Shown here: positions 2 to 20,660 of the stretch, piece by piece | How positions within the stretch are numbered: position 1 is the first letter of the stretch | How the letters are laid out: every line of letters starts with the position of its first letter | Virus record (IMG/VR): IMGVR_UViG_3300025828_000194 | Span: 1 to 24,023 of that record | Direction: 5' to 3' (one strand) | DNA: 24,023 nt | DNA from: a virus | Lineage: Duplodnaviria; Caudoviricetes | The notes under the pieces: generated by a model | Seen by the model: only the letters and a program-made list of their open reading frames with translations | What the model was told of the DNA's origin: nothing | The model's database searches: none | Made by a program: the position numbers and the translations under genes

Positions 2-712
2 AAAATGTTTGCAGGAATCGTAGTCCAGGATGCGTGTGACAAGATACTGCTGCAGAATAAGGACCCAGGTTTTGTCTTTGACCTGGCGCTGCAGAAGTAC
101 ATGGAGTACGAACCCAGGGATTGGGACAACGGCGTTGATGCGGAAGACTGGAGTAACTGCCAGGGCAAGCTGGTCGATGTCATACGCTGCAGCGTTGAAG
201 GTTTGCGTGAAGCGATGAGTCAGGCCGACAGTGTGTTTGGTGAGACCGATCTCAAAGGATGCTTGCCTGGCAACCAGGTTGAACACTTCAACAAGCCTGA
301 CTATGTAGGCTGCGGAGATCTCAAGACCAAGTGGCCGAAGCGCAACACCAGGACAAAGAAAGGATTCTCTGAGGCGTCGCTGCCGAAAGATCTATCAGGC
401 ATGTTCGATATGAACAACGTGTACCAGGTTGCTGGCGGCTGGTGGATCAACGGTAAGAAACCTGTCTGGCTGCTTTACTCGAACGGGAACGACTACACAA
501 TCCTGAGCGAGAAAAACTGCGAGCAGCTGCAGCCTGAGTACCTGGAGCAAATCGTTGCTGAGACCTCACGCATGCATAAGCTGACTGAGAAGATGCTCAA
601 GGCTTCGGAAACTAAAGAGGAGCTGCTTGAATGGGTAGTGCCTAACTTTGACGACCTGGCCTGGAAGGAGCCGCCTGGCTACCTTGAAGAAGCACGAAGG
701 ATTTTCAGGTGA
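2..712 (+). CDS. PD-(D/E)XK-family exonuclease (RecB/lambda-exo-like), probably 5'-truncated by the window
   Basis: KPDYVGCGDLKTKW gives the PD...(D/E)xK motif, followed by a YQVAG helix motif. The frame is open to the window edge (ATG at 5, no room for an RBS). It lies just upstream of an ERF gene. Confidence 0.65.
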   Translation, partial: KMFAGIVVQDACDKILLQNKDPGFVFDLALQKYMEYEPRDWDNGVDAEDWSNCQGKLVDVIRCSVEGLREAMSQADSVFGETDLKGCLPGNQVEHFNKPDYVGCGDLKTKWPKRNTRTKKGFSEASLPKDLSGMFDMNNVYQVAGGWWINGKKPVWLLYSNGNDYTILSEKNCEQLQPEYLEQIVAETSRMHKLTEKMLKASETKEELLEWVVPNFDDLAWKEPPGYLEEARRIFR

Positions 713-2757: not shown

Positions 2758-3180
2758 TCAGATCTCCAGGCTATCCTCAACCATTGCTGTAGCCAGGCGT
2801 GTAGCTCGCTGCCCTACCTGGTCTGCCCACCTAGAATCTAACATTTGCGCTGCGCACTCTTCCCAATTCTGTTCTTCAGCAGCTGCGATCATGTTCTTGA
2901 AATTTAGGAATCGACTGATGCCCAGGTTAAAAACCATATCAACAAAGATGCGCTGCCTAACTTCGCTCATGTCTCTCCACCACGGGAGGTTGTTGTCCAG
3001 TTCCTTCGTCACTCGCAGGATGTCGTTGTCCAGGAGGTACCTGGCTTCGTCTTCGGTGATGCCTAACTCTTCTACGTTGCGCCCGACCCCGAGCGTTATG
3101 AATCCTGCACTGCATTGGTAACTCTTTAGCTCCAGTCCTTCGTGTAGTATCAGCTGATCTTTCAGTTTATCTACGTCCAT
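2758..3180 (-). CDS. Endolysin, T4-lysozyme-like (GH24) muramidase
   Basis: HEGLELKSYQCSAGFITLGVGRN gives E-x8-C-x5-T; also DMVFNLG and MLDSRWADQVGQRATRL. Start chosen by GAGGT spacing (3186 is the alternative). Confidence 0.92.
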   Translation of the reverse strand: MDVDKLKDQLILHEGLELKSYQCSAGFITLGVGRNVEELGITEDEARYLLDNDILRVTKELDNNLPWWRDMSEVRQRIFVDMVFNLGISRFLNFKNMIAAAEEQNWEECAAQMLDSRWADQVGQRATRLATAMVEDSLEI

Positions 3181-3195
3181 ATCCATATACCTCAC

Positions 3196-3591
3196 TTACT
3201 TCGTTAACCCCTTTGCTTTCTCAAAAGATCGCATACCACCAAGCCCCAGCATACCGAGAAGTACAGTCATCAGCGAGTCCATATCGAACGCAGGTAACTC
3301 AGGTATTTCTGCACCAAACCAAGCAACTCCAAATACAATGAATGGAGCAAGCACAAAGTGATATGCCAGCGCGATTCCGCAGACCCATCCGATGAATGGT
3401 CTCCATCCTGCGACGAAGATTGATCGATGCTGGGCTTCTGCCTTGTTGACTTCAACTTGAGCCATAGCTGCTTCATGTGCAGCCTTCTCAGCCATCGTTG
3501 CAATCTCGTGAGCCATTGCATTTTTGGCATCCTTATCTTCGACGAACTTATCAAGCAGTCCGGTTACTGGTCCTATCAATGCTTGTATCAT
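3196..3591 (-). CDS. Holin (3TM 'gene-transfer release' holin type)
   Basis: VNKAEAQHRSIFVAGWRPFIGWVCG...LLGMLGLGGMRSFEK; adjacent to the endolysin; AGGGAG RBS before ATG 3591. Confidence 0.85.
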   Translation of the reverse strand: MIQALIGPVTGLLDKFVEDKDAKNAMAHEIATMAEKAAHEAAMAQVEVNKAEAQHRSIFVAGWRPFIGWVCGIALAYHFVLAPFIVFGVAWFGAEIPELPAFDMDSLMTVLLGMLGLGGMRSFEKAKGLTK

Positions 3592-3712
3592 TGGTCTTCT
3601 CCCTTGTCTTCCGACCACATTTGTCGCACTTGACGACAGGCCGAAATAATAACTTTGATCCGCATCCTGTGTGGTACATCCCCTCTTTAAAGACGTACTC
3701 GCAGACTTTCAT
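3551..3712 (-). CDS. Small four-cysteine (zinc-ribbon-like) protein, 53 aa
   Basis: Not in the ORF track. MKVCEYVFKEGMYHTGCGSKLLFRPVVKCDKCGRK gives C-x12-C-x11-CxxC. TGATG coupling and AAGGA RBS. Confidence 0.65.
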   Translation of the reverse strand: MKVCEYVFKEGMYHTGCGSKLLFRPVVKCDKCGRKTREKTNDTSIDRTSNRTA

Positions 3713-4106: not shown

Positions 4107-4819
4107 ACATAGTCCTCCAATAGTACAGCGCCCATGTATATGGACAATTCGTTTTCACCGCTGCTGCTCTTCGCTTCAATCAAGAAGTCTGTCTTTTCAC
4201 GCACAATGAATGGCACTCGCAGATTAAAGTATACGTCCTGTTGGAAAGTAGATTGCCAGAACCTGTTCTCTACGCCAGTGCTGCTGATGATTGATCCTCG
4301 CGCAGTCATATACTTGTTTGGGTTGACCGTCCCAGAGTTGAATGTGACTTGGTGTATATATAGGGATCGCCCGGCAGGGACCGTGTAGAAAGTTGTTTGG
4401 TGAGTCCCTAGGTCAGGACCGATATAAGCGTATACGGTCCCAGAGTTGCTGATGGATATTGCGCCAACGTTGACTCCTGCTAATGTCCTGGCTGCGTTGA
4501 TTCGGTAAAACTGATTTGTTGTCGTCACCGGAGTTGTGCCGCTGAGCTGCACAATATCGTAGATTTCCTCGTAATCCTCATCCAGGCCAGAGATCAGGAT
4601 TGTTTGAGTATCGTCGGCAGACGTAGAGACGCAGCTCATGGTCAGCGCCTGGCTAGGGTAAACGTACTGACCACCGCCGTTGTTCCAGATTGTTTCGTAT
4701 GTTGTGCTGACAGCAGGATTGAATCCAAAGAAGTGCAGCAGTTGCGCAGATGAATCGCGCTGCTGTCCAATCTCAAGCATGGCGTCAGGGCTGTTGATCT
4801 CTCGCCTAAAGTAAGCCAT
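4103..4819 (-). CDS. Conserved hypothetical phage protein (beta-rich, possibly virion-associated)
   Basis: 238-aa ORF in the operon; FGFNPAVSTTYETIW...YVYP...GLDEDY...YTVPAG motifs are familiar from aquatic phage proteins. Confidence 0.7.
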   Translation of the reverse strand: MAYFRREINSPDAMLEIGQQRDSSAQLLHFFGFNPAVSTTYETIWNNGGGQYVYPSQALTMSCVSTSADDTQTILISGLDEDYEEIYDIVQLSGTTPVTTTNQFYRINAARTLAGVNVGAISISNSGTVYAYIGPDLGTHQTTFYTVPAGRSLYIHQVTFNSGTVNPNKYMTARGSIISSTGVENRFWQSTFQQDVYFNLRVPFIVREKTDFLIEAKSSSGENELSIYMGAVLLEDYV

Positions 4820-4822
4820 CAG

Positions 4823-5281
4823 TTACCTGCCCCGTAAAGATATAAGCCAAAGTAAAAGGGCCACGGCCCCGCCCACCACACCGAGAACAGCAATGCCGAC
4901 AGCAGTATAAAGAAATCCATTCTGTATGGCCTTTTTCTTAGCCAGTTTGCGAGCCTGTTCACGCTCAATCTCTTTCTTCTTTAGAGCCTTGCGATTTTCC
5001 ATGAACTTCTGATAGTCATCCCAAAGTCCTGCGCGACCCTGGTAGATAAACATCTGTTTGATCTCAGCTTCTTTGTTGCGGATATCTTCTAGCGCAAAGA
5101 AGGCATCCATATCACCATCCTTTGCTTTCTTCTCAATCTGCTCTTTTGAATCCGCTAGCTTGGTTAGCTCACCACCCATCTGACCAACAGACTGGATGTT
5201 GCCACACATCTCTTTGATCGCGCCTATGGCTTCATTGGCTGCCTTGATTGCGCTAATTGCCAGGCCGATCTCCGCTAACAT
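4823..5281 (-). CDS. Hypothetical coiled-coil protein with a C-terminal TM helix
   Basis: 152 aa; the ATG directly follows the upstream TAG; charged helical core and hydrophobic C-terminus. Confidence 0.7.
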   Translation of the reverse strand: MLAEIGLAISAIKAANEAIGAIKEMCGNIQSVGQMGGELTKLADSKEQIEKKAKDGDMDAFFALEDIRNKEAEIKQMFIYQGRAGLWDDYQKFMENRKALKKKEIEREQARKLAKKKAIQNGFLYTAVGIAVLGVVGGAVALLLWLISLRGR

Positions 5282-5476
5282 CTAGGTCACCTTCATCAGA
5301 ATCGCAACAAGCATGGCTATGATGCTCCCTGCTGCAGCAATCATCACGCCTTCGATGCGCTTAATGCGGAGGATGGTTTCCTTCCAGCGCTCACCGCACA
5401 CAGCTTCGTGCGCCTCCAGGCGTACCTCAATACTATCGATGCGCTTATGCGCTGAAGACACTGTGCGCTTGTCCAT
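5282..5476 (-). CDS. Small coiled-coil plus TM protein (XhlA/holin-accessory-like)
   Basis: RLEAHEAVCGERW...RIEGVMIAAAGSIIAMLVAIL; GAGG RBS. Confidence 0.7.
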   Translation of the reverse strand: MDKRTVSSAHKRIDSIEVRLEAHEAVCGERWKETILRIKRIEGVMIAAAGSIIAMLVAILMKVT

Positions 5477-9593: not shown

Positions 9594-11360
9594 TTATGCT
9601 CCTGCGCTTGTGACTGCCGGAGTCGCACTGACCATTACGTTCGTACCATCAGAGTAGTACGACAGGAAGTAAACACCTGCTGTTGAGATGGTAGTGAGGT
9701 CTGCACTGGCAATGTATGTGGTAGCGGCGGCTGAGATAGTGTGGCCGCCAGAGTTGTCTAGCCAGATATTGCCAGACTGTCCGGCTGTAATGTTCGTGAA
9801 CGTCAGCGTACCTGTGCCTGTTGGTGTGCATTTGAAGTAGTTAGATGCGTTCATGTCGAATGACAGATCGTTGTCTGTGGTCAGCGTACCAGTTGCTCTT
9901 CCAGTGACAGCGACTCCTGCTGATGCTGTGGCGAATTTGGCGGAGTTGTCGTAGTAAAGGGATACTGCACCATTTTCATTCAAAACAGCATAGGTTTCAG
10001 ATGCATTAGTATTTGTGAAGCTGACAGCCGCACTTGCTTGAATATATAAGTCACCAGTACCTAAATCTCTAATCTGGCTGTTAGTGCCATCGTGATAAAT
10101 CTGTAAATCCGACCCCGTACCAAAGATAGCCTTGTCGTTGTCGCCAAAGTTCAGATCACCAGTCATGCTATCGCCAGTAACCGCAACAAAGTCTGTGCTT
10201 GCTGATGTGGCCGCAGTGCCTAAGCCAAGGTTTGTTCTAGCTGTTGCAGCGTCGGCGACATCAGACAAGTTGTTTGCTGCAGCCAGGAATGATCCGCCAG
10301 ATACATAAGCAGCAACCCAAGCAGAGCCTGTGTAAAGTTTCATTACAGTATCTGTTGTGTTGAAGTACAAATCCCCAGCATCAACAGTTAAACCGTTGCC
10401 AGTGACGTATGTTTCGGCTGCGCTATCACTTGCGTGAGCGCCATAGTAACGATCATCAAAATCATCAAACGCTGCCAATGCAGCATCTCTTGCAGACTCA
10501 GCAGCAGTCTTGGCTGTCTCTGCATCATCTTTATGACCCTCTGCTGTTGTTGCGTGACCGGATGCAGTTGTCGCATGACCCTCTGCTGTTGTGGCATGAC
10601 CTGAAGCCGTTGTTGCTGATGCCTCTGCATCGTCTGCGTGACCTTCCGCTGTCGTCGCGCTAGCTGCAGCTGCAGCTGCTGATGAAGACGCTGATGCAGC
10701 ATCAACGATCAAGTCCCACTTAGCGCTGTCTGTGTTTGATGTCAGTGGCTGAGAACCGCTAGACGTATGCGCTGTGTTGGCTAGGAAAATGTTGTTGGTG
10801 CTGGTGTCTTTAACCAGGTCACGCGCATTGTATGAAGTTGATGCTGACCAATCTCCCTGGTATGTACCAAGCTCTTGGGTAACAGATAAGTCACCATCGC
10901 CATCAAAAGCGAAGATTTTGTTTGCTCGATCTGCAGCAGAAATCGCAAACTCAGTCGATGAGATGGTGTTTGTAACCGATGCCTTAATAGACCGATCAAT
11001 CTCTTCTTGCATTTGCTGCGTGATAAACGTCAGGCGGTCCAACGCTTCTTCGTGCGATTCAGCAGGGAATGGATCGTTCTCAACGTAGTCTGTACCCTGG
11101 GTAAGCGCTAGCTTACGCTGAATAACCACAGTCTCGCCTGATGCTGGAGCAGTGCCGAATGTGACGTTACCGCCACCATCGACCCCAGCATTAGATACTG
11201 TGTAGTCAGTTGTCAGAGTCTTAAGCGTTTCTGTGCCAGTGGAGCTTCGGATATAAACGTCCAGGTCACCGTCTGCAAAGATCTTGAAAGTGTACTGAAA
11301 AACGGTTGTGGTTCCGTTCCCTGAGTAACTAACCTTGTTGGTTGTACTTGATACCGTCAT
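9594..11360 (-). CDS. Tail fibre protein with a T7 gp17-like N-terminal anchor
   Basis: YSGNGTTTVFQYTFKIF...TTDYTV...QGTDYVENDPFPAESHEEALDRLT anchor; Ala-rich coiled coil; GDLYFNT and NNLSDVADAATARTNLGLG fibre motifs. Confidence 0.88.
   Translation of the reverse strand: MTVSSTTNKVSYSGNGTTTVFQYTFKIFADGDLDVYIRSSTGTETLKTLTTDYTVSNAGVDGGGNVTFGTAPASGETVVIQRKLALTQGTDYVENDPFPAESHEEALDRLTFITQQMQEEIDRSIKASVTNTISSTEFAISAADRANKIFAFDGDGDLSVTQELGTYQGDWSASTSYNARDLVKDTSTNNIFLANTAHTSSGSQPLTSNTDSAKWDLIVDAASASSSAAAAAASATTAEGHADDAEASATTASGHATTAEGHATTASGHATTAEGHKDDAETAKTAAESARDAALAAFDDFDDRYYGAHASDSAAETYVTGNGLTVDAGDLYFNTTDTVMKLYTGSAWVAAYVSGGSFLAAANNLSDVADAATARTNLGLGTAATSASTDFVAVTGDSMTGDLNFGDNDKAIFGTGSDLQIYHDGTNSQIRDLGTGDLYIQASAAVSFTNTNASETYAVLNENGAVSLYYDNSAKFATASAGVAVTGRATGTLTTDNDLSFDMNASNYFKCTPTGTGTLTFTNITAGQSGNIWLDNSGGHTISAAATTYIASADLTTISTAGVYFLSYYSDGTNVMVSATPAVTSAGA
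10533..10658 (-). repeat. Six 21-bp (heptad) coding repeats, consensus ATTA(E/S)GH
   Basis: ATTAEGH-ADDAEAS-ATTASGH-ATTAEGH-ATTASGH-ATTAEGH, with synonymous divergence between units. Confidence 0.85.
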
Positions 11361-13858
11361 CGTGCAAGATCTCCTGCTGCTGCTCCTATGTCAGGCGCTC
11401 TTGATGGGGCAGTTTGTCCAGGTCTCCACCAATAACGCTGACCGTATTCTTTTTTCCTCAATCTCTCAAGTCTTCTCATATTCGATCTTGCATCTGGGTC
11501 TGCCCAAATCCGCATCTGATCGAAGACCATTCTTTCTAACGCTGTCCTCAAATACCAAATACTTGAGCCAGGCGTATACCTTGCTGCAAATGTTAACATT
11601 TCCTTCGCCAATTTTGGATCTTCTCCAGTCAACGCCTGGACAACATTCCCAGAGGAAAGATTCCTTAGATCACTTACAAGGCCACCAATGACTGGTCCAG
11701 CAACAGTTTCTCCAAGCCCTCTGTTGTGCCGATTGACATCAGAAAACAGGAAATCGCCATAAATACCAAAACCACCTCCAGCAAGCATTGCAGCCATCCA
11801 GAAGTCTGGGTCGTCCATTGGACGAGGATCTCTTCCTTTTGCAATTTCTTTAAGCTGCAAACCAAGAGCGCCCATCAGCGTTGTGCTGATAATTAAATCA
11901 GCCATGTACAGCCCTTTGGCTTTTGGCCCAGAGCGCATAGCTGCCCTGGTAAAATGATCGCCAACAACTGTCACGCCAAAGTTTTTGAATTGCGCAAATG
12001 AGCGCAAAATTTCACCTGGCAGCGTTCCTGGTCTACTTTCTCCATACAGCGTATATGCGCCTCTTGCTGAAGATGTAGGGATAGCCGTGTCTGTTTCTGC
12101 ATTGATTGCTTGCTGCCATTTTGTAGAAAGCCTGGTTGCTTCTTCAAAAGACAAATCAGTTCTTTTATCTATCGCTGCAGATGTTAAGAATTCTGCTCCG
12201 TCTTCAACGTATGGCGCAGTCTGCCGTATGGCATCCCAGTCAGCTTCATTGATTCCATGCTTTAACAAAGTCTCTCTGTTTTCTGGTGTCAACTGGTCAA
12301 ATGTTTTTCCTGCAGCGTCCGCATAGTAACTTGTCCAGGACATACCAAAAGCCCATCGACCAGCTGTTGTATGCGGGGAAAGCAACGAAGCGTTCATTGT
12401 GAAGTCAGAAATTCGCCTGGTAATTTCTGTGCCTGATACGTCTCCAATGAAACGCATCTGAGCTGTAGCGACTTGCGCCCATCCGTCAGCAATCAATCCC
12501 TGGGAAATAGCTATCTTTGCTCGCTCTTCGTAACCAAGTGGATTCATGTACTTTAGGTAATCCTTGATTATCGAAGTCTGTGGCAAGCCAGCCATCCTCC
12601 TGGCAATCCGCTGAAAGTTTAAGTCTGTAATCGCAATTAGTGATGTTGCCCCCAGAAATGCACCAGAAATCAACTGACGCATACCTGCAAAAGTTTGCGC
12701 AACTTTAGGGTTTATGGGGCTATTCACTGCTCCAGTTATGTGTTGATACAAACCTCTTGCTTTGTTTATGTCGGATGTATATTTAGCTTTTGCCTTTGGG
12801 TCGGCTCCTGTTTCTCTGTAAGCCACGTTCTCCAGGTAGGCAAGCATTGAGTGTGGGTTGGGGCCAAGAACCTCCATAACGCCAATATCCCTGGACATGG
12901 TTTCAATGTGCTGAACCATCGTTTCAAAAATATTGTCGTTGCCAAATTTTTTTTGGTACTGCAGCCAGGAATCAGCATCTTTAAAAACCAGAAACCTGTG
13001 ATCTGCGCGAGTGTTCCTTAAAGCCTTTTTCCCTTGCCCACGATTGAAACCTAGCGCTGTTCTGCTTGCGTTTTCTGTAACGATTGCTTCGTGCATATCT
13101 TTTAAAGCAATCTCAATCGTCTCCCTGGTAAATGGCAGTCCCGTTGTGGAATCGATCATTTTATCCAGGTCAATGTAATCAAGTAACTCATCGCGCCAAA
13201 TTTGATATCCATCATCCAGGTTCTGAGCAACTGTTCTTATCTTGTCTGCGTTATGTGATGTAGGGAAGTTCCAGTCAGCCCGCTTAGGAATATGTCCTCC
13301 AGCAGCGTTAAACCTACGTCTAAGGTATTCGCTGCCATCAGCCCAGGATGCAGATAGCTCTCGTGCAACAGCGTCACCAGTGTCTTCACCAAAACTTTCT
13401 CTTACTGCATTTTCAAGATTTGCTTTATTTCTTGTTTGCCCTAAAAGATTTCTGTGGCCTTTAGCCAGGATGTTGCTAATCCGCGCATAAGCTAGATTTC
13501 TAACAGCATCAATCTGGCCTTTTACGCTGCCAAATGTTCCAAGATTTAATTTGTCCATCAAAGCAACAATGCCTTCGCTGGCACTATTTTGATTTTTTAT
13601 GGTTTTGTAGCCTAAAATATTTCGCCTGTTTTCCGTGGCCTTTCTAGCCTGGATCAATGCCACACGTTTCTTTTCCTTTGCTTCAAAAGAAAACGCATCA
13701 AATGCCTGTTGACCAGCAATTCGCTCTGCTTCAGCTTTTGGCATCCTTGCAGCATTTTCTTCAACAGCGCCTTCAAATAGATCAGAAATCTTATCTAATC
13801 GCTCCGGGTCGATCTTGCCTTCAGCCCTGGCATTTGCAATACATTGTCTAAAGCTCAT
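11357..13858 (-). CDS. Internal virion (ejection) protein, large
   Basis: Lies before the fibre gene; GEILRSFAQFKNF, LKEIAKGRDPRP, GGGFGIYGDFL and YWWRPG motifs. Start reassigned to ATG 13858 (TAATG coupling). Confidence 0.8.
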   Translation of the reverse strand: MSFRQCIANARAEGKIDPERLDKISDLFEGAVEENAARMPKAEAERIAGQQAFDAFSFEAKEKKRVALIQARKATENRRNILGYKTIKNQNSASEGIVALMDKLNLGTFGSVKGQIDAVRNLAYARISNILAKGHRNLLGQTRNKANLENAVRESFGEDTGDAVARELSASWADGSEYLRRRFNAAGGHIPKRADWNFPTSHNADKIRTVAQNLDDGYQIWRDELLDYIDLDKMIDSTTGLPFTRETIEIALKDMHEAIVTENASRTALGFNRGQGKKALRNTRADHRFLVFKDADSWLQYQKKFGNDNIFETMVQHIETMSRDIGVMEVLGPNPHSMLAYLENVAYRETGADPKAKAKYTSDINKARGLYQHITGAVNSPINPKVAQTFAGMRQLISGAFLGATSLIAITDLNFQRIARRMAGLPQTSIIKDYLKYMNPLGYEERAKIAISQGLIADGWAQVATAQMRFIGDVSGTEITRRISDFTMNASLLSPHTTAGRWAFGMSWTSYYADAAGKTFDQLTPENRETLLKHGINEADWDAIRQTAPYVEDGAEFLTSAAIDKRTDLSFEEATRLSTKWQQAINAETDTAIPTSSARGAYTLYGESRPGTLPGEILRSFAQFKNFGVTVVGDHFTRAAMRSGPKAKGLYMADLIISTTLMGALGLQLKEIAKGRDPRPMDDPDFWMAAMLAGGGFGIYGDFLFSDVNRHNRGLGETVAGPVIGGLVSDLRNLSSGNVVQALTGEDPKLAKEMLTFAARYTPGSSIWYLRTALERMVFDQMRIWADPDARSNMRRLERLRKKEYGQRYWWRPGQTAPSRAPDIGAAAGDLAR

Positions 13859-16800
13859 TACACGCAATCCTTAAATCGTTCGATTAAAGCATCATCCATC
13901 TCAAAATCTTTTTGCATTTCGTCAAATGTTTGCATCCTGGGCTGCATTTGGGCATCCTCATCAACAAATATCCCAGCGGTAGGGAAACCGTCTGGATCAT
14001 TGGTTTCGTTGACCAAATCTGTTACACTGAACTCGGAGGTATTAGAAGTGAGATTTTTCATGGTAGACGGCATATCACTGGCAGCATGGGATGTTGACAG
14101 TGACGTTGTGTCTGTGTGGGACGGACGCGCTGGTGCCTGGAGATCAGGTAAAGGTGCCTCCCGTATATTGATGGACGACAGGTCGCCCGAAATATCAGCA
14201 GCCGAAGCTGCATCTCTTGCGCTCAAACTTGGCACCAACCTCCGGTCAATCTCAAGCGTTGCTAACATGGAATCAAACGTAGAAGGCAGTTCATCAGCGA
14301 CTTCTTGATACAGAGTTCTCATTTCGGTTGACAATCTCTTCTCAACGTCAATGTCTGCTTCGTTAATTAGTTCGCCATCATCGTCACGCTTTAATGCGCG
14401 CCAAAGTTCATAAAGTTTATGCCCGCCAGTATAAGGTTTTGTTTCCCCTTTTTTATTGACGTATGTTGCTTCATATCCAAACCTGGTTAGGTCAGCAGTA
14501 TTTTTAGCGTCAAGCATGCCTGGAGGCCAAAACTGAATTTCAGCAAGCATCCCGTCAGGCATGATAACCAGGGCTTTTGCATCAAAATAACCAACTGGAG
14601 TTTTCCCCCAGCCTTCATCAATGATGTGCCACTTGTAGTCTTCGTTTAGTTTTTTAAGTACGGCCCTGGCATCTTCTGGGCGGTAAACGGTCATGCCAGT
14701 CCTGGCTATGTCTGTAACGTTATACAAAGATGGTAATAAGTTGTCTGGATCAGCTTTGTATTTCTCAACCAGTTTCTCTATTGTAGCATCTGCTTCTTTA
14801 ACTGGAGGGACTAAAAACTTTCCAGCATCGTCTTTCTTTGGTTTAAATTCCAGGCCAAGGTCATTTGCAATTTTCTCAACCGCCTCATTCAGCGCCTGGT
14901 GATTTGCAGCGCCCCTAGTCATCATGCTGTCAAAAGATTCAAACTCTTGGTTATGCAAGACTTCATTCATAAATGAACCAAAGCTCACTTTGTCAGACTC
15001 TTGCTTGTCTACATATCTTGGTTTTTCTTTTGCGCCAGGACGCAGAATATTGGCCATTGCTTTTTCTGATGTGGCAGAAGCAAACTCCTCATCAGTTGTT
15101 ACGCGAATAGGCATGCTCTCCCATCCGCTATCTACAGCAACCGAATAGGTACTATTTCCGTCACGCAGCTCATACGTTCCATCACCAAGATCTTTGGCTT
15201 CAACAGGCATGCGCTTTTCCATGAGGCCTTCTTCGGCCTGAGACATAAACACTTTTGCATTAAATATTCCTTCGCCCCTAGCTCTTATTGGTTTGATATC
15301 ACGCAAAGAAACCATTAAGTAATCGCCAGTCGTATCAAAATACAAAGACGGATCTGGCTTCAGCCTTATGGCAGCCATTTGTCTGAATACTTTCCTGGCA
15401 ACAGCTTCTCCAGCTGCGGTTAAACCACCTGACTGAGCTTTTGGATTTTGGCTGCGATATAAGTAAGAAAGCGTTGAGCCAATCCCGCGCCCCTGGAAAT
15501 CTGTTGCGACTAGACCCTGGACCCCACCTTCGTACCTGCGCCAATACCCAAGGATGAGATCTTCTGTCTCGTGCATAGCAAAGATGTCTGGACCGCTGCG
15601 ATCTTTCATATAAATAACGCCGTCAACCCGAGCTATTTCTACAGTGCTTATTGGAAAGTCAAAGGCTTCGTCCATTGTCAAATCAGTTAACTCAAGCGAA
15701 TCCAAGCGCATTGCTTCAACTTCTGGTACGCGCAGCCCACCTGGGTTGATTAACTCAATATAAGCATCTTCATCAAATTTGCCGATTGACTTAGCAACAT
15801 TCTGCCGAACTTCTTCAAAAGCATCCGCTGCCTGTTTTGTTGCCCCTTCTCCAACTACGTCGTCAAAGAGCGAGAAATCTTCGTCCTGGACAACCTGCGG
15901 GCGTTCTGAGACTTCCGCTTGATTGCGTGAATGTACGAAATCATCTCCGCTTGCGTAGCGATCAAATTCGCCCTCATCAACTGCTCTTCTGACGGACCCG
16001 AGGAATTGTTCGACAGCTCCGTCATACTTTCCTGATTCTCTTGCAATCTTAGCTGCGTCTGTAAGCGCGGACGAGATTGGCCCCCTTGCGTTTGCGAGCG
16101 CTGTGAGGATTTCGAGCGTTTTCTCTTCATCAGTGATACGTCTCCTGTTGTTCTCTTTAATTACAACATTGCCTTCTTCTTCGAGGCGACTAGCGTTTCT
16201 AACAATGTTATTGAAAGCAGCCTTGTCTTTTCTTATTTGTTTCTGCGCTCTATCCAGGATAACTGCGCGCTCCTCAAAATAAGAATCAATAAAGGTTTCT
16301 GCGCCAAACAATCCTTCCTGGGTTACTTTTTCGTAACCAGCAACCTTAACGTCTTTGACAATCTGAGTAGCCTGGAATTCATTGTTCGGCTCAATCCTGG
16401 CTAAAACTTTAAAAGCAGCTTCCTGCATTGCAGCGTCATCAGGAATTAGTTGACCGATAACTGCGCCATAGTTCATTGGAACCAGGCCGTTTATCATATA
16501 AGGCCATAGCTCTTCATTGATTGCCATGATTGCCCTACCCTGCCTAGCAATCGCTGACTCCTTGCCGAAAGATAACTTTTCGATATCTTCCGGGCGCATC
16601 TTAAATACCCTTGCTGCATCCAATGCAGAACCAGTTCCCTGGCGAATATTTTTAATGGCTGCTGAATAACGCAAGTCTTCCGCAGAAAAACCATCTGTTT
16701 CCCGGAAAATAATGACAGGCAGCCTTGGCTCTTGTGCCGGATCTGTATCCATAATTCGCTTAGCAAGGCCCAATCTCTGATGTCCATCGGCAACAAAATT

Positions 16801-18306
16801 GGCCCCGTCAGATCTTTGCCAAACCATAATTGGGTCAGCTGCATTTTGATCCCACTGCGTTACGTCAGCAAACTTGGGTAAGACACCGTACCTATCGCCT
16901 CCAGATTTAAACTGGAAAGTTTCTGCATCAACCTGGATGGACCGCAAATCATCTCCGCCCCAGATTGGGAGGCTGCTTTCTTCTATTGCTTCGTTAATTG
17001 GAGATATTGGTTTTTCGGGAATATTTGGTGCTTTATTGTGAACTACGGCTTCTGTTGCTGCTGCAGATCTTTCCGCATGTTCTAAATTAGCTCTTGCACC
17101 CTGCCATGCCTCATCAATTTCATTCTGTTTTGTTAACCAGTCATCAATGTTTTTTGTGGATTGATCCCATAATTTTTTAATGCCATTGACATCTAAGTCT
17201 TTGGTAATTTGAGCAAGCTGCGCGTTCCTTTCTTCAATAGTAATTTCGCCGCGTTCATAAGCGTCAAGCACTGGTTGCCATAATTCGGCTTGCTGTTTTT
17301 TTACTTCTTCCCAAGATATCTTGTAACCTGCTTCAATATCGAGCAGCCTATCCATTTCTTTTTGCCATCGTGCTAAAGGCAGAGGCAGAGGCAAATCTTC
17401 TAAAGGATTTGTGGTTTGCAGATCTTCAAGTTTTTCAAGAGCAACTTCAGCAGCTTTAGCATCTGCAGATGGTGAGTCGGCAAGGCCGCTATCTTTGTAA
17501 GCCTTAATTCCTTTCTTTACTTGATCCGCAGTTAACTTCATGGTCCCAGAAAAAATAGCGCTAAATGCGCCGCCAGCTGCCGTTCTTGTAACAAAGTCTT
17601 CCCAGCCATACTCATACCCTAGCTCTTCGTACCAGGAAGCAACTCTTGGCTGCAACAATGCTGTTACTCCTGCGCCAACAACAAATTCGCGCAGCAACAA
17701 CGAACCAAGAGTTTTAGCGCCAGCTGAGTAAAGACCAGATGGTAATGTTAGATATGTGAATGGATCATAAGCAGCAGAAGCAACACCAGCGCCCATACCG
17801 ACCAGCCAGTTAGTCGCACCGTATGACCTCCCCTCGACTTCCATGTATTGCTGTCTTTTGCTTCTAGCAAGGTTTTTTGCCTCCTCTTCTATATTCCTGG
17901 ATGCGAAATCTGCAACTTCCGGGAACCGATCCTGGTTATCCAAAATATGCTTTCTAATTTTATTGGCGCGTTCTCCGTAGTCAGATGTTCCGCTATAAGC
18001 AAAAGATGATTCTGGATCAATCATCTCTCCACGCTGTTCAGCTTCATATATTTCTCGTTCAGTTTTCTCCGCAATGATGGAGTCGCCTGGATTGTCGAAA
18101 GTAATTCCGTCACGCTCTTGGATTAAATCAATATATGGCTGCCATGCGTCTTGGTGCGAATACAAGTCAGACACAAACAGCTCATTGTAAATGCTGTCTT
18201 GCAGAGCAAATTCCCAAACTTCAGAAGCGCTTGCGCTAGGTTTGTTGCTCCAGACACTAGGCTGGAATGGAGCTTGCGATTTTTTTTGGAAAAGAAACGA
18301 ACTCAT
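13858..18306 (-). CDS. Polyvalent internal virion protein (ParB-like, GNAT, ParB-like and RelA/SpoT-like domains)
   Basis: 1482 aa in the ejection-protein block. Motifs: VADGHQR (aa ~507), FQGRGIG (aa ~938), LRDGNST (aa ~1049) and PVK...TDIAR...GY...EIQ...HKLYE (aa ~1170-1300). Confidence 0.8.
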   Translation of the reverse strand: MSSFLFQKKSQAPFQPSVWSNKPSASASEVWEFALQDSIYNELFVSDLYSHQDAWQPYIDLIQERDGITFDNPGDSIIAEKTEREIYEAEQRGEMIDPESSFAYSGTSDYGERANKIRKHILDNQDRFPEVADFASRNIEEEAKNLARSKRQQYMEVEGRSYGATNWLVGMGAGVASAAYDPFTYLTLPSGLYSAGAKTLGSLLLREFVVGAGVTALLQPRVASWYEELGYEYGWEDFVTRTAAGGAFSAIFSGTMKLTADQVKKGIKAYKDSGLADSPSADAKAAEVALEKLEDLQTTNPLEDLPLPLPLARWQKEMDRLLDIEAGYKISWEEVKKQQAELWQPVLDAYERGEITIEERNAQLAQITKDLDVNGIKKLWDQSTKNIDDWLTKQNEIDEAWQGARANLEHAERSAAATEAVVHNKAPNIPEKPISPINEAIEESSLPIWGGDDLRSIQVDAETFQFKSGGDRYGVLPKFADVTQWDQNAADPIMVWQRSDGANFVADGHQRLGLAKRIMDTDPAQEPRLPVIIFRETDGFSAEDLRYSAAIKNIRQGTGSALDAARVFKMRPEDIEKLSFGKESAIARQGRAIMAINEELWPYMINGLVPMNYGAVIGQLIPDDAAMQEAAFKVLARIEPNNEFQATQIVKDVKVAGYEKVTQEGLFGAETFIDSYFEERAVILDRAQKQIRKDKAAFNNIVRNASRLEEEGNVVIKENNRRRITDEEKTLEILTALANARGPISSALTDAAKIARESGKYDGAVEQFLGSVRRAVDEGEFDRYASGDDFVHSRNQAEVSERPQVVQDEDFSLFDDVVGEGATKQAADAFEEVRQNVAKSIGKFDEDAYIELINPGGLRVPEVEAMRLDSLELTDLTMDEAFDFPISTVEIARVDGVIYMKDRSGPDIFAMHETEDLILGYWRRYEGGVQGLVATDFQGRGIGSTLSYLYRSQNPKAQSGGLTAAGEAVARKVFRQMAAIRLKPDPSLYFDTTGDYLMVSLRDIKPIRARGEGIFNAKVFMSQAEEGLMEKRMPVEAKDLGDGTYELRDGNSTYSVAVDSGWESMPIRVTTDEEFASATSEKAMANILRPGAKEKPRYVDKQESDKVSFGSFMNEVLHNQEFESFDSMMTRGAANHQALNEAVEKIANDLGLEFKPKKDDAGKFLVPPVKEADATIEKLVEKYKADPDNLLPSLYNVTDIARTGMTVYRPEDARAVLKKLNEDYKWHIIDEGWGKTPVGYFDAKALVIMPDGMLAEIQFWPPGMLDAKNTADLTRFGYEATYVNKKGETKPYTGGHKLYELWRALKRDDDGELINEADIDVEKRLSTEMRTLYQEVADELPSTFDSMLATLEIDRRLVPSLSARDAASAADISGDLSSINIREAPLPDLQAPARPSHTDTTSLSTSHAASDMPSTMKNLTSNTSEFSVTDLVNETNDPDGFPTAGIFVDEDAQMQPRMQTFDEMQKDFEMDDALIERFKDCV
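14000..14040 (+). promoter_or_regulatory. Putative sigma70-type promoter (extended -10) and Shine-Dalgarno for the nested antisense gene
   Basis: TTGGTT (14000-14005), 17-nt spacer ending TGT, TACACT (14023-14028), then GGAGGT (14035-14040) 7 nt before GTG 14048. Confidence 0.6.
14048..14308 (+). CDS. Nested antisense gene, 86 aa; candidate immunity/antitoxin for the RelA/SpoT-like domain
   Basis: Strong RBS and promoter. The sequence is protein-like (MRFFMVDGISLAAWDVDSDVVSVWDGRAGAWRSGKGASRILMDDRSPEISAAEAASLALKLG...) while the overlapping - strand segment becomes Ser/Thr-rich and shadow-like. Confidence 0.6.
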   Translation: MRFFMVDGISLAAWDVDSDVVSVWDGRAGAWRSGKGASRILMDDRSPEISAAEAASLALKLGTNLRSISSVANMESNVEGSSSATS

Positions 18307-20660
18307 TTCCCGTACAGCTCCTGCCAGGCTCTAATATTGATTATCAGAGGATCTCCAAAGTCATCTGTAATCCCTTCGTGATAACCAAAGGAATCACCAC
18401 GAATTAGATAGTATTGGTCTTTACCGTAAGCAACTAATGAATACAGGGCGCTTTCTTCTCTGATGTCTTCAGATAAACCAGGATTAACAACTTGCCCGTC
18501 TGTGACTTCAAAAAATTGCTCATCAGTGACATTCTTTAATAGTTTCTTAACATCATCAGCATCGGTGTTATCTGGCAGGAGTACCATATTGTTCCTTGCC
18601 ATTTCATGGAATCCACCTTTACCTGTAGATTTGTTTTGACCAAATGCTTCTTGAATTGCTTGCGCATAGATTTCTTCATTAAATTCACCTAAACCTTGTG
18701 CTCTGTAGGCATAGATGCCTTTTGCTAATTCGTACCCTGCGGTCATTGACGAAGGGTTGTTTATTAACGACTTTCCTACTGTCTGGTTAAATACTTCTTG
18801 CATTGTTGTTTGGTCGTATTTAACTGGTGCGCCGTTCTTAATAAGGTCTAAACCTTGTAGCGCATCACTAACTACAGAGTGTTTACCGTCAACCAGTAAT
18901 CCGCCAAGGTGCGCGTATTCATCTACATTTTTGGCATCAACAAGTTCGCCCAAGACGATTGGAGCGTCATTACCAAATCCTTGCGCAATACTGGTTAGCA
19001 GCGCATGGCGTGACCCTGCGTCGCCGTTTTTCAATAAATCAGATAACGCTGATCTTTCTGCGTCAGTAGTAAACTGGGGCGTCGTTAAACCAAACTTGTC
19101 TGCTACAAAGTACGCATCGCGACTCCGACGCGCTGCGTTCTGCATCCACTCCTGGCTAACCTGTGGGCGACCATTAACAAGAACTGCTCTGCCTCTATCA
19201 TCACGCTGATACATATCCGCAATCAAAGGACTCGAAACAATAAGATCTCGATTCTGTGCAGCTTCCAGGGCATCACCACTTGCTATCTTGGAACTCAGTC
19301 CAGAAAGCATCTGACGCCCATTCTTGATGACGACAGCCGCTTCCATTGTTACGCCACCTGATTCCTTAGCTTTGCTCTCCATCTCGTCAACTGCTGCAGC
19401 TAGTTCTAAAGGACCCATTTTCCGCATGCCAGTAATGATGTCGTAAGTTGCCTTTAATACGTTTTGAGCCTGGACTAAAGATGCAGGAGCTTGAGTTCCT
19501 AAAGCAGCAATCTGTCTATCTGGGGCTAGAATTGTTGCTACCCCAGGATCAAACCCATCTAACAAAAGCCTTGTTGCGTCTGCTTGCTGCTTCTCAATGG
19601 TTTTCACTACAGCGTTGATTTGGGCTTTCATCGAGCTTATTACGCCTTTACCGTGAGAAATCGTAGCTCTAAAGTCAGACGAAACCATTCCAACCTGGTC
19701 TGGCGTACCCATCATTACATCAAGCAATTTTTTCTTTTTATCCTCAAACGACACTTCTGGATTGTTAAAGTATTGCTCAAGCTCAAGTCTTTGCTCGTCA
19801 GATAACAGCGCTTTAGCTGCTTTATCCAACTGTTTCTGTGTTCTTATTTCACCTTCTATTGCGTTTTTTAGCTGCTTTACTTCTGTAGGCAAAAGATACG
19901 ACAATTCAGAAGCAATATTATCTGGGACCTTCCCTTGCTCGAAATCTGCAAGAAATTTCTCAACAACCTCTACTGGCTGCGTACTACTTAATGCGTCAAT
20001 GTGATTTACGATTCTGTTTTTAGCTACCATTGTCCTGGTAGTCATTGCTCTTGCTGCAGCTTTATCTGGTGATATAAAGCCGTTCTGTATGCCGTTGTCG
20101 TAAAAACTTTTGATGCCATTAGCAGGGTCACCAAATAGTTCTACAGATGCGTTCATGTCACCGCTTGCTGCTGCAAGTTTTAGGCTTTCTTCTCTTTCAA
20201 GCCAGGTAGCTGTGCCGATACTGGCGCGCATAGATCGAGTAAATCTTTGTACATTAGCGGTTTGTTTTTGCGAAGTGGCATCGTACTGTAGAAAAAACTG
20301 TTGCCTGGTGGCGTCGTTCTGAATTGCTTTAGACTGTTTCTCCCGGTGAAAAGTTACACTGTCCTGCCAATACTGATCCGCCTCGTCTGGGTTTCCCCTT
20401 TTTGCCATTTCTTCTGCCATAGCAGCAGATTCACTTAGCATGCGGTTCGACTCATTAAGAGCTTTTAATCGCTCGGTTTCATTGCGCTGCTGAAGCTCAG
20501 CCTTGCCATACTGAAACGCTGCGTCTTCTGCCTGGGCATAAAATGCTTTCGCTGCTTCAGCGCCACGCGCAAACTGCTGAGGGCTTGCTTGTACTGACAT
20601 ACGCTGCCCACCAACTTCAGTGGTCCGCTGAACTTGCTGGGTATAGGTAGGTACTTTCAT
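18303..20660 (-). CDS. Internal virion (ejection) protein
   Basis: 785-aa helical protein starting MKVPTY, located between the gp14-like gene and the polyvalent gene; ATGA coupling. Confidence 0.7.
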   Translation of the reverse strand: MKVPTYTQQVQRTTEVGGQRMSVQASPQQFARGAEAAKAFYAQAEDAAFQYGKAELQQRNETERLKALNESNRMLSESAAMAEEMAKRGNPDEADQYWQDSVTFHREKQSKAIQNDATRQQFFLQYDATSQKQTANVQRFTRSMRASIGTATWLEREESLKLAAASGDMNASVELFGDPANGIKSFYDNGIQNGFISPDKAAARAMTTRTMVAKNRIVNHIDALSSTQPVEVVEKFLADFEQGKVPDNIASELSYLLPTEVKQLKNAIEGEIRTQKQLDKAAKALLSDEQRLELEQYFNNPEVSFEDKKKKLLDVMMGTPDQVGMVSSDFRATISHGKGVISSMKAQINAVVKTIEKQQADATRLLLDGFDPGVATILAPDRQIAALGTQAPASLVQAQNVLKATYDIITGMRKMGPLELAAAVDEMESKAKESGGVTMEAAVVIKNGRQMLSGLSSKIASGDALEAAQNRDLIVSSPLIADMYQRDDRGRAVLVNGRPQVSQEWMQNAARRSRDAYFVADKFGLTTPQFTTDAERSALSDLLKNGDAGSRHALLTSIAQGFGNDAPIVLGELVDAKNVDEYAHLGGLLVDGKHSVVSDALQGLDLIKNGAPVKYDQTTMQEVFNQTVGKSLINNPSSMTAGYELAKGIYAYRAQGLGEFNEEIYAQAIQEAFGQNKSTGKGGFHEMARNNMVLLPDNTDADDVKKLLKNVTDEQFFEVTDGQVVNPGLSEDIREESALYSLVAYGKDQYYLIRGDSFGYHEGITDDFGDPLIINIRAWQELYGK

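Follow-up and report, generated by a model that had tools for sequence, protein, structure and literature searches.

A phage ejection-protein gene contains, on its opposite strand, a small conserved gene whose 86-aa product is probably an immunity protein of the Tis1/IapK type, one that would bind and switch off the Tas1/Apk-like (p)ppApp-synthetase domain encoded immediately next to it. The window, by which we mean the whole 24,023-nt stretch of viral DNA that was analysed, carries this nested gene at 14048..14308 on the + strand, where it is supported by homologue alignment, selection tests and AlphaFold modelling. An earlier note made from the window had read the arrangement as a toxin-immunity cassette, and comparison with relatives at the sequence level supports that interpretation. 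Those of the note's checks that were made all gave the outcome it predicted, and none of its refuting outcomes was seen.

A polymorphic ejection protein with a predicted synthetase cargo

The carrier is a 1482-aa open reading frame that runs without interruption on the - strand (13858..18306) and that the ORF list and its homologues identify as an ejection (internal virion) protein gene. Its place in a T7-like structural module is that of gp16, with genes for tail tubular proteins A and B and an internal virion protein as neighbours, and its product gives PHROG matches over residues 417-773. Relatives of the protein were collected as 22 homologues in one search and 77 loci in another. The N-terminal ~840 aa of the protein are conserved and include a ParB-like region. 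A variable cargo region follows, and then a C-terminal end (..FDEMQKDFEMDDALIERFKDCV; 13861..13989, - strand) that is conserved across all cargo types and bounds the swapped cassette on its downstream side. Cultured phage records gave no match to the DNA of the region or to the Tas-like C-terminus, and a search of two near-complete relatives turned up no integrase.

In the window, the cargo is a Tas1/Apk-like (RelA/SpoT-type) synthetase domain spanning residues ~1101-1344 (14275..15006, - strand) by the extent of the family HMM. Its core, residues 1161-1306 (14389-14826, - strand), matched residues 275-413 of Tas1 (PDB 6ox6_A) with E=1.4e-5 in a phmmer search against the PDB; a Pfam search of the ejection protein returned no RelA_SpoT match. 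The motif AEIQFWPPGM pairs with GEIQVNSPEM of Tas1, and 12 homologues agree without exception at D1199, R1202, Y1240-K1244, E1256, Q1258-M1264, G1294-H1296 and Y1299. These conserved synthetase motifs include the catalytic ExQ. From homology, we predict that this domain is active as a toxin, using up ATP and making (p)ppApp.

The ejection protein is a polymorphic virion protein whose cargo is swapped between a Tas1-like synthetase, a second synthetase type and a Zeta toxin. Loci L009 and L018, for example, are 74-96% identical over the N-terminal 750 columns and 89% identical over the last 35, with a cargo that is 0-43% identical; across L009, L018 and L014 the two flanks are 74-98% and 89% identical, again with 0-43% in the cargo. 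The Zeta type comprises 26 distinct proteins labelled by their P-loop pattern, and Pfam Zeta_toxin was confirmed in 15 of the 19 non-Tas tails tested.

The nested gene has its own conserved expression signals

The nested gene starts with GTG at 14048, stops with TGA at 14306-14308 and lies opposite sense residues 1334-1420. A Shine-Dalgarno sequence, GGAGGT (14035..14040, + strand), is located 7 nt 5' of the GTG, and is itself preceded by a sigma-70-type promoter (14000..14028, + strand) made up of TTGGTT (14000-14005), a 17-nt spacer and TACACT (14023-14028), with a TGt before the -10 hexamer that gives an extended -10. Promoter, GGAGGT, GTG and the 86-aa ORF all lie where the earlier note had placed them.

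These signals are kept among the relatives. In all 32 of the 32 viral loci found by scan, a Shine-Dalgarno core of at least 5 nt is positioned 4-8 nt 5' of the start, and the start codon, be it ATG, GTG or TTG, occupies the same position; the sense identities in these loci are 26-47%, and the sense residues under the Shine-Dalgarno sequence vary (TS, AS, SS, PP). When distinct upstream regions were counted, the Shine-Dalgarno sequence was present in 51 of 56, and a TTGNNN-16..18-TANNNN promoter ending 10-24 nt 5' of the start in 48 of 56, where chance would give 0.05 per region. Promoters of the relatives approach consensus, as in TTGACA-17-TATATT, and TTGGTT-17-TACACT marks the promoter position of the family. 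The window's own copy was not flagged by a generic promoter scan. It is weak (7/12), and this weakness and the GTG start are observations that speak against an immunity function. Conservation thus extends to promoter, ribosome-binding site and start alike, and no homologue has a stop inside the nested ORF. In locus L005 an in-frame TAA lies immediately 5' of the GTG, which fixes the start at that GTG. An RNA library contributed one unstranded contig of 175 nt at 14294-14462, outside most of the nested ORF.

A promoter so strongly conserved, which would give a transcript complementary throughout to the late mRNA, could also be explained as an antisense promoter making a regulatory RNA against the ejection-protein mRNA, with the ORF incidental. 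We consider this very unlikely, as it leaves unexplained the conserved Shine-Dalgarno sequence and start, the selection seen at the amino-acid level and the confident predicted fold, and as homologues exist that are free-standing and have no antisense target.

Frame-specific selection separates the nested gene from a chance open frame

The sense and antisense frames share third codon positions, as had been proposed and as coordinate arithmetic confirms; stops in the + frame can therefore arise only where sense NNT is followed by TAN, NNC by TAN, or NNT by CAN. The + frame is open from 13844 for 154 codons. Within the last 129 sense codons there are 7 such at-risk contexts and 0 stops, compared with 38 stops in 113 contexts over the remaining gene, and the probability of finding zero stops in 7 contexts is about 0.055. 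The same type of antisense frame in neighbouring genes has open stretches of 164, 122, 111 and 101 codons, and open antisense stretches of 100-164 codons occur in most large genes of the window, so that the open + frame alone is unremarkable. Its openness is, by itself, not beyond chance. That open frames as long as this are no rarity in the window is a further observation against the immunity reading.

With only 7 at-risk contexts in the last 129 codons, and with open stretches of 100-164 codons common in the window and found also in Zeta-type tails, the nested ORF might be taken for a shadow ORF, in which a Tyr-free Ser/Thr/Ala sense linker yields no antisense stops and is mirrored into Asp/Glu/Val/Ala/Gly. 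Such a mirror in composition follows from the genetic code. The earlier note had argued from the folded-protein look of the + frame; that argument falls, the look being largely the code mirror of a Ser/Thr/Ala/Pro linker, and the conclusion drawn from it was nonetheless correct. What decides the matter is comparison with relatives, which confirms at the level of aligned homologues that the nested ORF is more than chance. Promoter, Shine-Dalgarno sequence and start are conserved at sense positions that are synonymous or variable, an invariant Trp is maintained through the third base of a sense codon that itself varies, changes are biased towards antisense-synonymous ones with the sense frame relaxed, an AlphaFold model reaches a pLDDT of 90.5, and homologues exist outside any nesting. 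The shadow-ORF explanation is already contradicted by these comparative data, and we regard it as scarcely tenable.

The selection tests were carried out on 13 representative homologues, whose 78 pairs are related and so not phylogenetically independent, and counts were conditioned on codon boxes; the unconditioned third-position test is confounded by composition. At sense four-fold sites that fall in split codon boxes of the antisense frame, the ratio for antisense-synonymous third-base differences was 65:33 in the overlap and 89:282 upstream. The reciprocal test for the sense frame gave 77:101 in the overlap versus 603:287 upstream. Amino-acid identity in the overlap was 0.335 for the antisense and 0.299 for the sense frame, and in the upstream control 0.317 and 0.354, respectively. 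Within the overlap, purifying selection acts on the antisense frame, with constraint on the sense frame relaxed; the flip in polarity between the two frames that had been noticed in the window alone is thus real across these 13 homologues.

Individual positions can be followed in the alignments. Met1 and Trp31 are invariant among 24 distinct nested products, and the sense codon before a conserved Gln ends in C in 24 of 28 cases while encoding L, A, P, D, F, R, V or I, with the other 4 of the 28 (the L073 group) shifted there by one alignment column. The relaxed sense segment is a Ser/Thr/Ala-rich, Tyr-free linker (residues ~1351-1420; 14047..14256, - strand), and it sits opposite the folded part of the nested protein.

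The nested gene is exchanged together with the synthetase cargo

A nested antisense ORF of 65-87 aa was present in 30 of 30 complete Tas-type viral loci. Of 52 metagenome loci, found by a scan with subfamily alignments in a collection that may have contigs in common with the viral one, 42 likewise have it inside an ORF that bears a synthetase. In three further loci (L018, L019 and L074), the cargo is of a second synthetase-like kind (family HMM E 8e-5 to 4e-4), and the nested protein is of a second type as well. The nested gene is conserved in about fifty distinct marine phage sequences. In the tails of Zeta-type loci, an antisense ORF with Shine-Dalgarno sequence and start was not found. The ORF therefore accompanies RelA/SpoT-type domains and is missing from family members with a Zeta toxin, which is the distribution expected from the original proposal. 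The swapped segment includes the nested gene, whose type changes together with that of the synthetase. As an observation on the other side, the existence of toxin-bearing (Zeta) versions of the ejection protein that have no nested gene weighs against the immunity reading.

Relatives of the nested gene also occur outside ejection-protein genes. Locus L123 has a stand-alone synthetase gene (HMM E=5.7e-45) that ends without the tail, and the small gene is convergent with it, overlapping by 40 nt at the 3' ends and thus almost un-nested. A copy on the chromosome of a Marivivens MAG lies beside tRNA-Ser, with homology to the phage loci limited to 9998-10260 of L080, and L121, a 65.9-kb contig, encodes a tandem two-domain protein. 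L124, L125, L128, L129 and L099 are free-standing copies as well, and among these non-nested relatives are orphans in bacterial-type contigs.

Predicted fold and function of the nested protein

The nested product is predicted by AlphaFold to fold confidently, with a pLDDT of 74.6 and pTM of 0.58 for the protein from the window and 90.5 and 0.80 for the WDGRPA subfamily; the two models have a similar order of secondary-structure elements. Residues 72-86, opposite the end of the synthetase domain, are disordered (pLDDT <50). Neither the nested protein nor its relatives matched Pfam, PHROGs or NCBIfam, the nested protein had no match in the protein Atlas, and Foldseek against the PDB gave none at E<=0.001. 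Known immunity families showed no sequence similarity to it, and Tis1 (6ox6_B) was not listed when profiles A2, A4 and A7 were run against all PDB sequences with E up to 10. Tis1 did rank 2 of 48,161 chains, but the match is weak. The suggestion that the ISxxEA ending recalls small immunity proteins is unsupported.

Evidence that the gene is real does not disclose what it does. A translated product could instead serve as a chaperone or packaging adaptor, as an anti-defence or superinfection-exclusion factor, or as a regulator of the late operon acting through convergent transcription and a small protein. The weak Tis1 match, the lack of sequence similarity to known immunity families, and the orphan copies in bacterial-type contigs, which are compatible with any role, would allow for this. 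Against it stand the strict linkage to synthetase cargo and absence from Zeta-type cargo with the same flanks, the joint swapping of nested-protein type and synthetase type, the L123 gene, which keeps its convergent place by the synthetase gene even without the ejection-protein tail, and the second place of Tis1 among 48,161 chains. We therefore judge another role to be rather unlikely.

On the toxin-immunity interpretation, the synthetase cargo would be ejected with the virion protein into the infected cell and there consume ATP. Host RNA polymerase would transcribe the small gene from its own promoter, and the small protein would neutralise the synthetase through direct binding, either as new ejection protein builds up before packaging or after the injected copies have finished their work. 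Because the cargo must sit upstream of the essential C-terminal end, nesting would keep toxin and antidote together; this geometry suggests that a cargo so placed can keep its immunity gene only within itself. A phage that kills its host may need no antidote, which is an observation against an immunity function.

In the window's own virus, an Aph1-like hydrolase may help through degradation of (p)ppApp. The record G001 is of the same virus, its DNA agreeing with the window at every position over 10,258 nt, and residues 8-150 of a protein it encodes match residues 10-142 of the (p)ppApp hydrolase 7smg_A (E=3.8e-27). The score for Pfam HD_4 is 24.4 bits, under the cut-off of 27.2. The gene is outside the window, about 16 kb away on the + strand, and among the records searched, 2 of 9 of the synthetase type and 0 of 5 of the Zeta type yielded such a hydrolase.

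More tentatively, it is possible that the antidote acts as a timer that stops the injected (p)ppApp synthetase when the host has been subdued, that the two genes form an inseparable two-strand cassette (~200-260 bp) moving among abundant marine podoviruses, and that bacteria have captured free-standing copies as anti-phage defence.

Relation to known toxin-immunity systems and antisense genes

In pore-forming colicins and colicin-M-like bacteriocins, the immunity gene is a neighbour of the toxin gene, lies on the other strand and has its own promoter. The nested gene resembles these in being transcribed against its toxin gene from its own promoter; theirs adjoin the toxin gene, whereas here the gene is embedded in the coding sequence. 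To our knowledge, bacteria and phages have very few antisense protein-coding genes that are deeply conserved, and most of the antisense genes proposed lack both a function and a comparative signal. Literature searches on nested or antisense immunity genes found none.

The closest parallels to the proposed pair are (p)ppApp systems. Tas1 (Apk1) of Pseudomonas aeruginosa is a (p)ppApp-making type VI effector whose immunity protein, Tis1, occludes its active site (PDB 6ox6; PMC10083569). There, delivery is by a PAAR/T6SS module and the partner gene is downstream on the same strand; here, delivery would be by a phage virion ejection protein, the toxin is an internal cargo followed by a conserved C-terminal end, and the partner gene runs antisense within the 3' part of the toxin gene, encoding a protein without sequence similarity to Tis1. 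The Apk2 MuF polymorphic toxins of temperate phages are described with IapK (Tis1-like) and Aph1 immunity genes downstream (PMC12226406, PMC10083569). The present system is similar in pairing a phage virion protein bearing an Apk-type domain with a small non-enzymatic partner, and in the Aph1-like hydrolase of this virus, which is variably present where the small partner is always present. It differs in that the carrier is the gp16-position ejection protein of HTVC010P-like podoviruses, that the small gene and the toxin gene overlap in antisense orientation, and that the hydrolase gene is ~16 kb away on the + strand rather than in an operon. The Zeta-toxin sister ejection proteins have the same N-terminal ~750-840 aa and C-terminal end and likewise a toxin-type cargo, and differ in that no nested antisense gene with Shine-Dalgarno sequence and start was found in them.

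Embedded antisense genes with their own expression signals and signs of purifying selection are described in E. coli O157:H7 and Pseudomonas aeruginosa, where they are reported to be of recent evolutionary origin or restricted distribution and to have no clear function (PMC9927249, PMC8850804). Compared with these cases, the nested gene is conserved across proteins that are only 26-47% identical, and it has free-standing homologues and an evident partner. It thereby offers an unusually clean, testable model of dual coding, whose value rests on conserved signals, frame-specific selection, a predicted fold, free-standing homologues and an obvious partner. With the proposed function, the ejection proteins of HTVC010P-like marine podoviruses would join type VI secretion and MuF prophage proteins as settings for (p)ppApp toxin-immunity biology. 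Nested genes of this kind are missed by standard gene callers; searches of a database of 5.8 billion clusters returned only about 20 such small proteins as called genes.

Genomic context of the nested gene

The minus strand of the window carries a T7-like podovirus structural module comprising tail tubular proteins A and B, internal virion proteins and tail fibres and ending with a holin (3196-3618, minus strand) and an endolysin-like gene (2758-3195, minus strand); an Erf-like annealing protein/recombinase is encoded on the plus strand (908-1651). Tail tubular protein B shares ~54% identity with its counterpart in HTVC010P-type pelagiphages. Across 10,258 nt, the window DNA is identical to part of viral record G001 (37,240 bp; 100% complete according to CheckV). 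Neither G001 nor a second record, G004 (99% complete), yielded a tyrosine integrase, and a search for T7-type RNA polymerase was uninformative, as it returned zero matches even in controls.

The 1482-aa ejection protein (13858-18306, minus strand) occupies the gp16 position and includes a ParB-like region, with PHROG matches to residues 417-773. Similarity to the Tas1 toxin domain (PDB 6ox6_A, E=1.4e-5) spans residues 1161-1306, with the ExQ-type motif aligned. This synthetase domain was undetected by Pfam; its motif residues are invariant across 12 homologues with 41-47% identity in the C-terminal part. We infer that it is catalytically active, making (p)ppApp, and that it is delivered together with the ejection protein. 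Elsewhere in the protein, residues 918-946 (15468-15554, minus strand) gave a weak match to Pfam Acetyltransf_7 (E=0.007, below the cut-off), and one homologue is named "GNAT superfamily N-acetyltransferase" in one source; this GNAT-like region could be a second enzymatic cargo. A homologue of the ejection protein, P0009, is filed under a public MAG labelled Candidatus Poseidoniales archaeon, a placement that is probably a binning artefact.

Signals of the nested gene and their conservation

The elements that the earlier note had named are all present on the plus strand: a promoter (TTGGTT at 14000-14005, a 17-nt spacer and TACACT at 14023-14028), the Shine-Dalgarno (SD) sequence GGAGGT at 14035-14040, and an ORF opening with GTG at 14048 and closing with a stop at 14306-14308. 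The note's argument from the "protein-like" look of the plus frame carries no weight by itself, as a Ser/Thr/Ala/Pro linker mirrored through the genetic code gives just such a composition. Since the two frames have their wobble positions in common, plus-strand stops can arise only where a sense Tyr, His or Gln stands in a certain context, and the Tyr-free sense tail offers only 7 contexts able to yield one. Most large genes of the window contain open stretches of 100-164 codons in the same type of frame, and relatives without the nested gene also have long open antisense stretches in their tails. Openness and composition therefore prove nothing. A wobble-sharing open antisense frame of 164 aa lies within the neighbouring 785-aa gene (18715-19209, plus strand) and shows that long shadow ORFs are common in the window.

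Scanning viral contigs with a protein-family alignment gave 365 related stretches, from which 77 loci were kept. Besides the window's own virus (L001-L003), 31 of these have a Tas-like C-terminal part; 31 synthetase-type ORFs were examined, and 30 of them are complete. All 30 contain an antisense ORF, 65-87 aa long, whose frame is related to the sense frame as in the window. The promoter and ribosome-binding site, whose conservation the earlier note had proposed as a check, are also retained. An SD core of at least 5 nt stands 4-8 nt before an ATG, GTG or TTG in every one of the 30 loci, at the position of the window's GTG, and is kept across differing sense codons (ACC TCC, GCC TCC, TCC TCC or CCT CC(T)). 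In one locus, L005, an in-frame TAA immediately precedes the GTG. The pattern TTGNNN-16..18-TANNNN was found at a fixed upstream distance in 48 of 56 distinct viral and metagenomic upstream regions (chance expectation, 0.05 per region); seven of the eight regions without it belong to non-nested copies. Many relatives' promoters are near consensus, for example TTGACA-17-TATATT, and the small gene would be transcribed by host RNA polymerase. Gene callers seldom annotate the small proteins (14 and 12 matches in two database searches, nearly all on short contigs).

The antisense frame is under selection

Aligning 24 distinct antisense products revealed an invariant Met1 and Trp31. Trp31 is encoded by TGG because the sense codon preceding the conserved Gln1390 ends in C, which it does in 24 of 28 sequences, despite encoding eight different residues; the other four (the L073 group) are shifted by one column in the alignment used. 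We compared substitutions among 13 representatives (78 pairs, which are not independent) at sense four-fold sites falling in antisense split codon boxes. The antisense-synonymous ratio of third-base differences was 65:33 in the overlap versus 89:282 upstream, and in the reciprocal test sense-synonymous and non-synonymous differences stood at 77:101 in the overlap and 603:287 upstream. Both tests indicate that constraint within the overlap acts on the antisense frame, with the sense frame forming a relaxed linker, bearing out the polarity flip described from the sequence. The stretch downstream of the plus-strand start has extra identity at synonymous sites with no synonymous bias (6:15), as would be expected of promoter and SD sequence. 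An RNA-only role, which a conserved promoter would also suit, is very improbable beside this coding constraint, and a mere shadow ORF, for which the commonness of open frames might speak, is more improbable still.

The nested gene travels with the synthetase cargo

The ejection-protein family is polymorphic. We sought Zeta_toxin matches in the last 450 aa of sister ejection proteins and found this Pfam domain in 15 of the 19 non-Tas tails tested; in L010, L014, L021, L024 and others (E 1e-14 to 1e-22) it takes the place that the synthetase domain has in Tas-type proteins. No Zeta-type locus has an antisense ORF with SD and start in its tail; the co-occurrence proposed for checking is seen in 30/30 complete Tas-type loci. 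In three further loci (L018, L019 and L074) the cargo is of a second, distantly synthetase-like kind (family HMM E 8e-5 to 4e-4; motifs IRDSYRF, GWRIIAFD, LVEWYLP and GHxxFEEWR) and is accompanied by a second type of nested protein. Between L009 and L018, identity is 74-96% in the first 750 alignment columns and 89% in the last 35, with 0-43% in the cargo; these conserved flanks around divergent cargo indicate that a cassette, nested gene included, has been swapped between them.

When metagenomes were scanned with the small protein's WDGRPA subfamily, 52 loci were recovered, 42 of which have the small ORF nested in a long antisense ORF matching the synthetase HMM, including proteins with other C-termini. 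The synthetase-bearing ORFs that enclose the small gene in L130 (2543 aa) and L131 (at least 1637 aa) are much larger and lack the family's C-terminal motif at their end. The synthetase gene of L123 (HMM E=5.7e-45) has no tail, and the small gene lies convergent just past it with a 40-nt overlap.

The window's virus and its relatives carry a conserved, selected, promoter-bearing antisense gene that is tied to the synthetase cargo and swapped with it. Nesting would keep an immunity gene linked to a cargo bound to lie upstream of an essential C-terminal end. Toxin-immunity logic is already known; full-text literature searches turned up no toxin whose immunity gene is nested or antisense. The novelty lies in an architecture of opposite-strand dual coding that has been kept across deep divergence, and in its carrier, the ejection protein of HTVC010P-like podoviruses.

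A candidate immunity protein and a variable hydrolase

AlphaFold modelled the window's small protein (24 sequences) with pLDDT 74.6 and pTM 0.58 (pLDDT ~83 over residues 1-70); the last 15 residues, opposite the end of the synthetase domain, are disordered. The WDGRPA subfamily (31 sequences) reached pLDDT 90.5 and pTM 0.80, and the elements of both models follow one another in a similar way: four strands, helix, strand, helix. Foldseek returned no significant match for the small-protein model, and the sequence profiles did not reach Tis1, the immunity protein of Tas1. The fold comparison with Tis1 (6ox6_B) gave a score that the tool itself would class as weak; the chain's rank, second of 48,161, is notable because Tis1 had been the hypothesis beforehand. 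A real protein with another function, for which these nulls leave room and against which the pairing with synthetase cargo speaks, is an unlikely but not negligible alternative. As an immunity protein, the product would bind and inhibit the synthetase domain. It might spare the cell while late synthesis is under way, silence the toxin once it has been injected, or do both.

G001 also encodes a (p)ppApp hydrolase-like protein of ~160 aa (L136:1477-1953, plus strand), ~2.5 kb before the window's first base, which shows full-length similarity to the (p)ppApp hydrolase 7smg_A (E=3.8e-27). The hydrolase recurs in G002, a 46%-identical relative, and had no match in seven other synthetase-type or five Zeta-type records. 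This constant small partner and variable hydrolase mirror the published Apk2 MuF toxins, for which tis1-like genes are described as always present and aph genes as variably so (PMC10083569). Acceptor-site occlusion is described as the mode of action of IapK (PMC12226406).

Free-standing copies

The available DNA of six loci with the small gene (L099, L121, L124, L125, L128 and L129) contained no recognisable synthetase-like sequence; three of these loci (L099, L124 and L129) are on contigs of <2 kb. L121, on a 65.9-kb contig with bacterial housekeeping genes, including MetRS- and TatD-like ones, encodes a 247-aa protein consisting of two tandem copies of the small-protein domain (4614-5354, plus strand). 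An intact copy of the second nested-protein type is present on a Marivivens sp. MAG chromosome (L080:10001-10243, plus strand), adjoining a tRNA-Ser (9720-9809). Only 9998-10260, the ORF itself, is homologous there to the phage loci, and this copy may be an orphan immunity gene.
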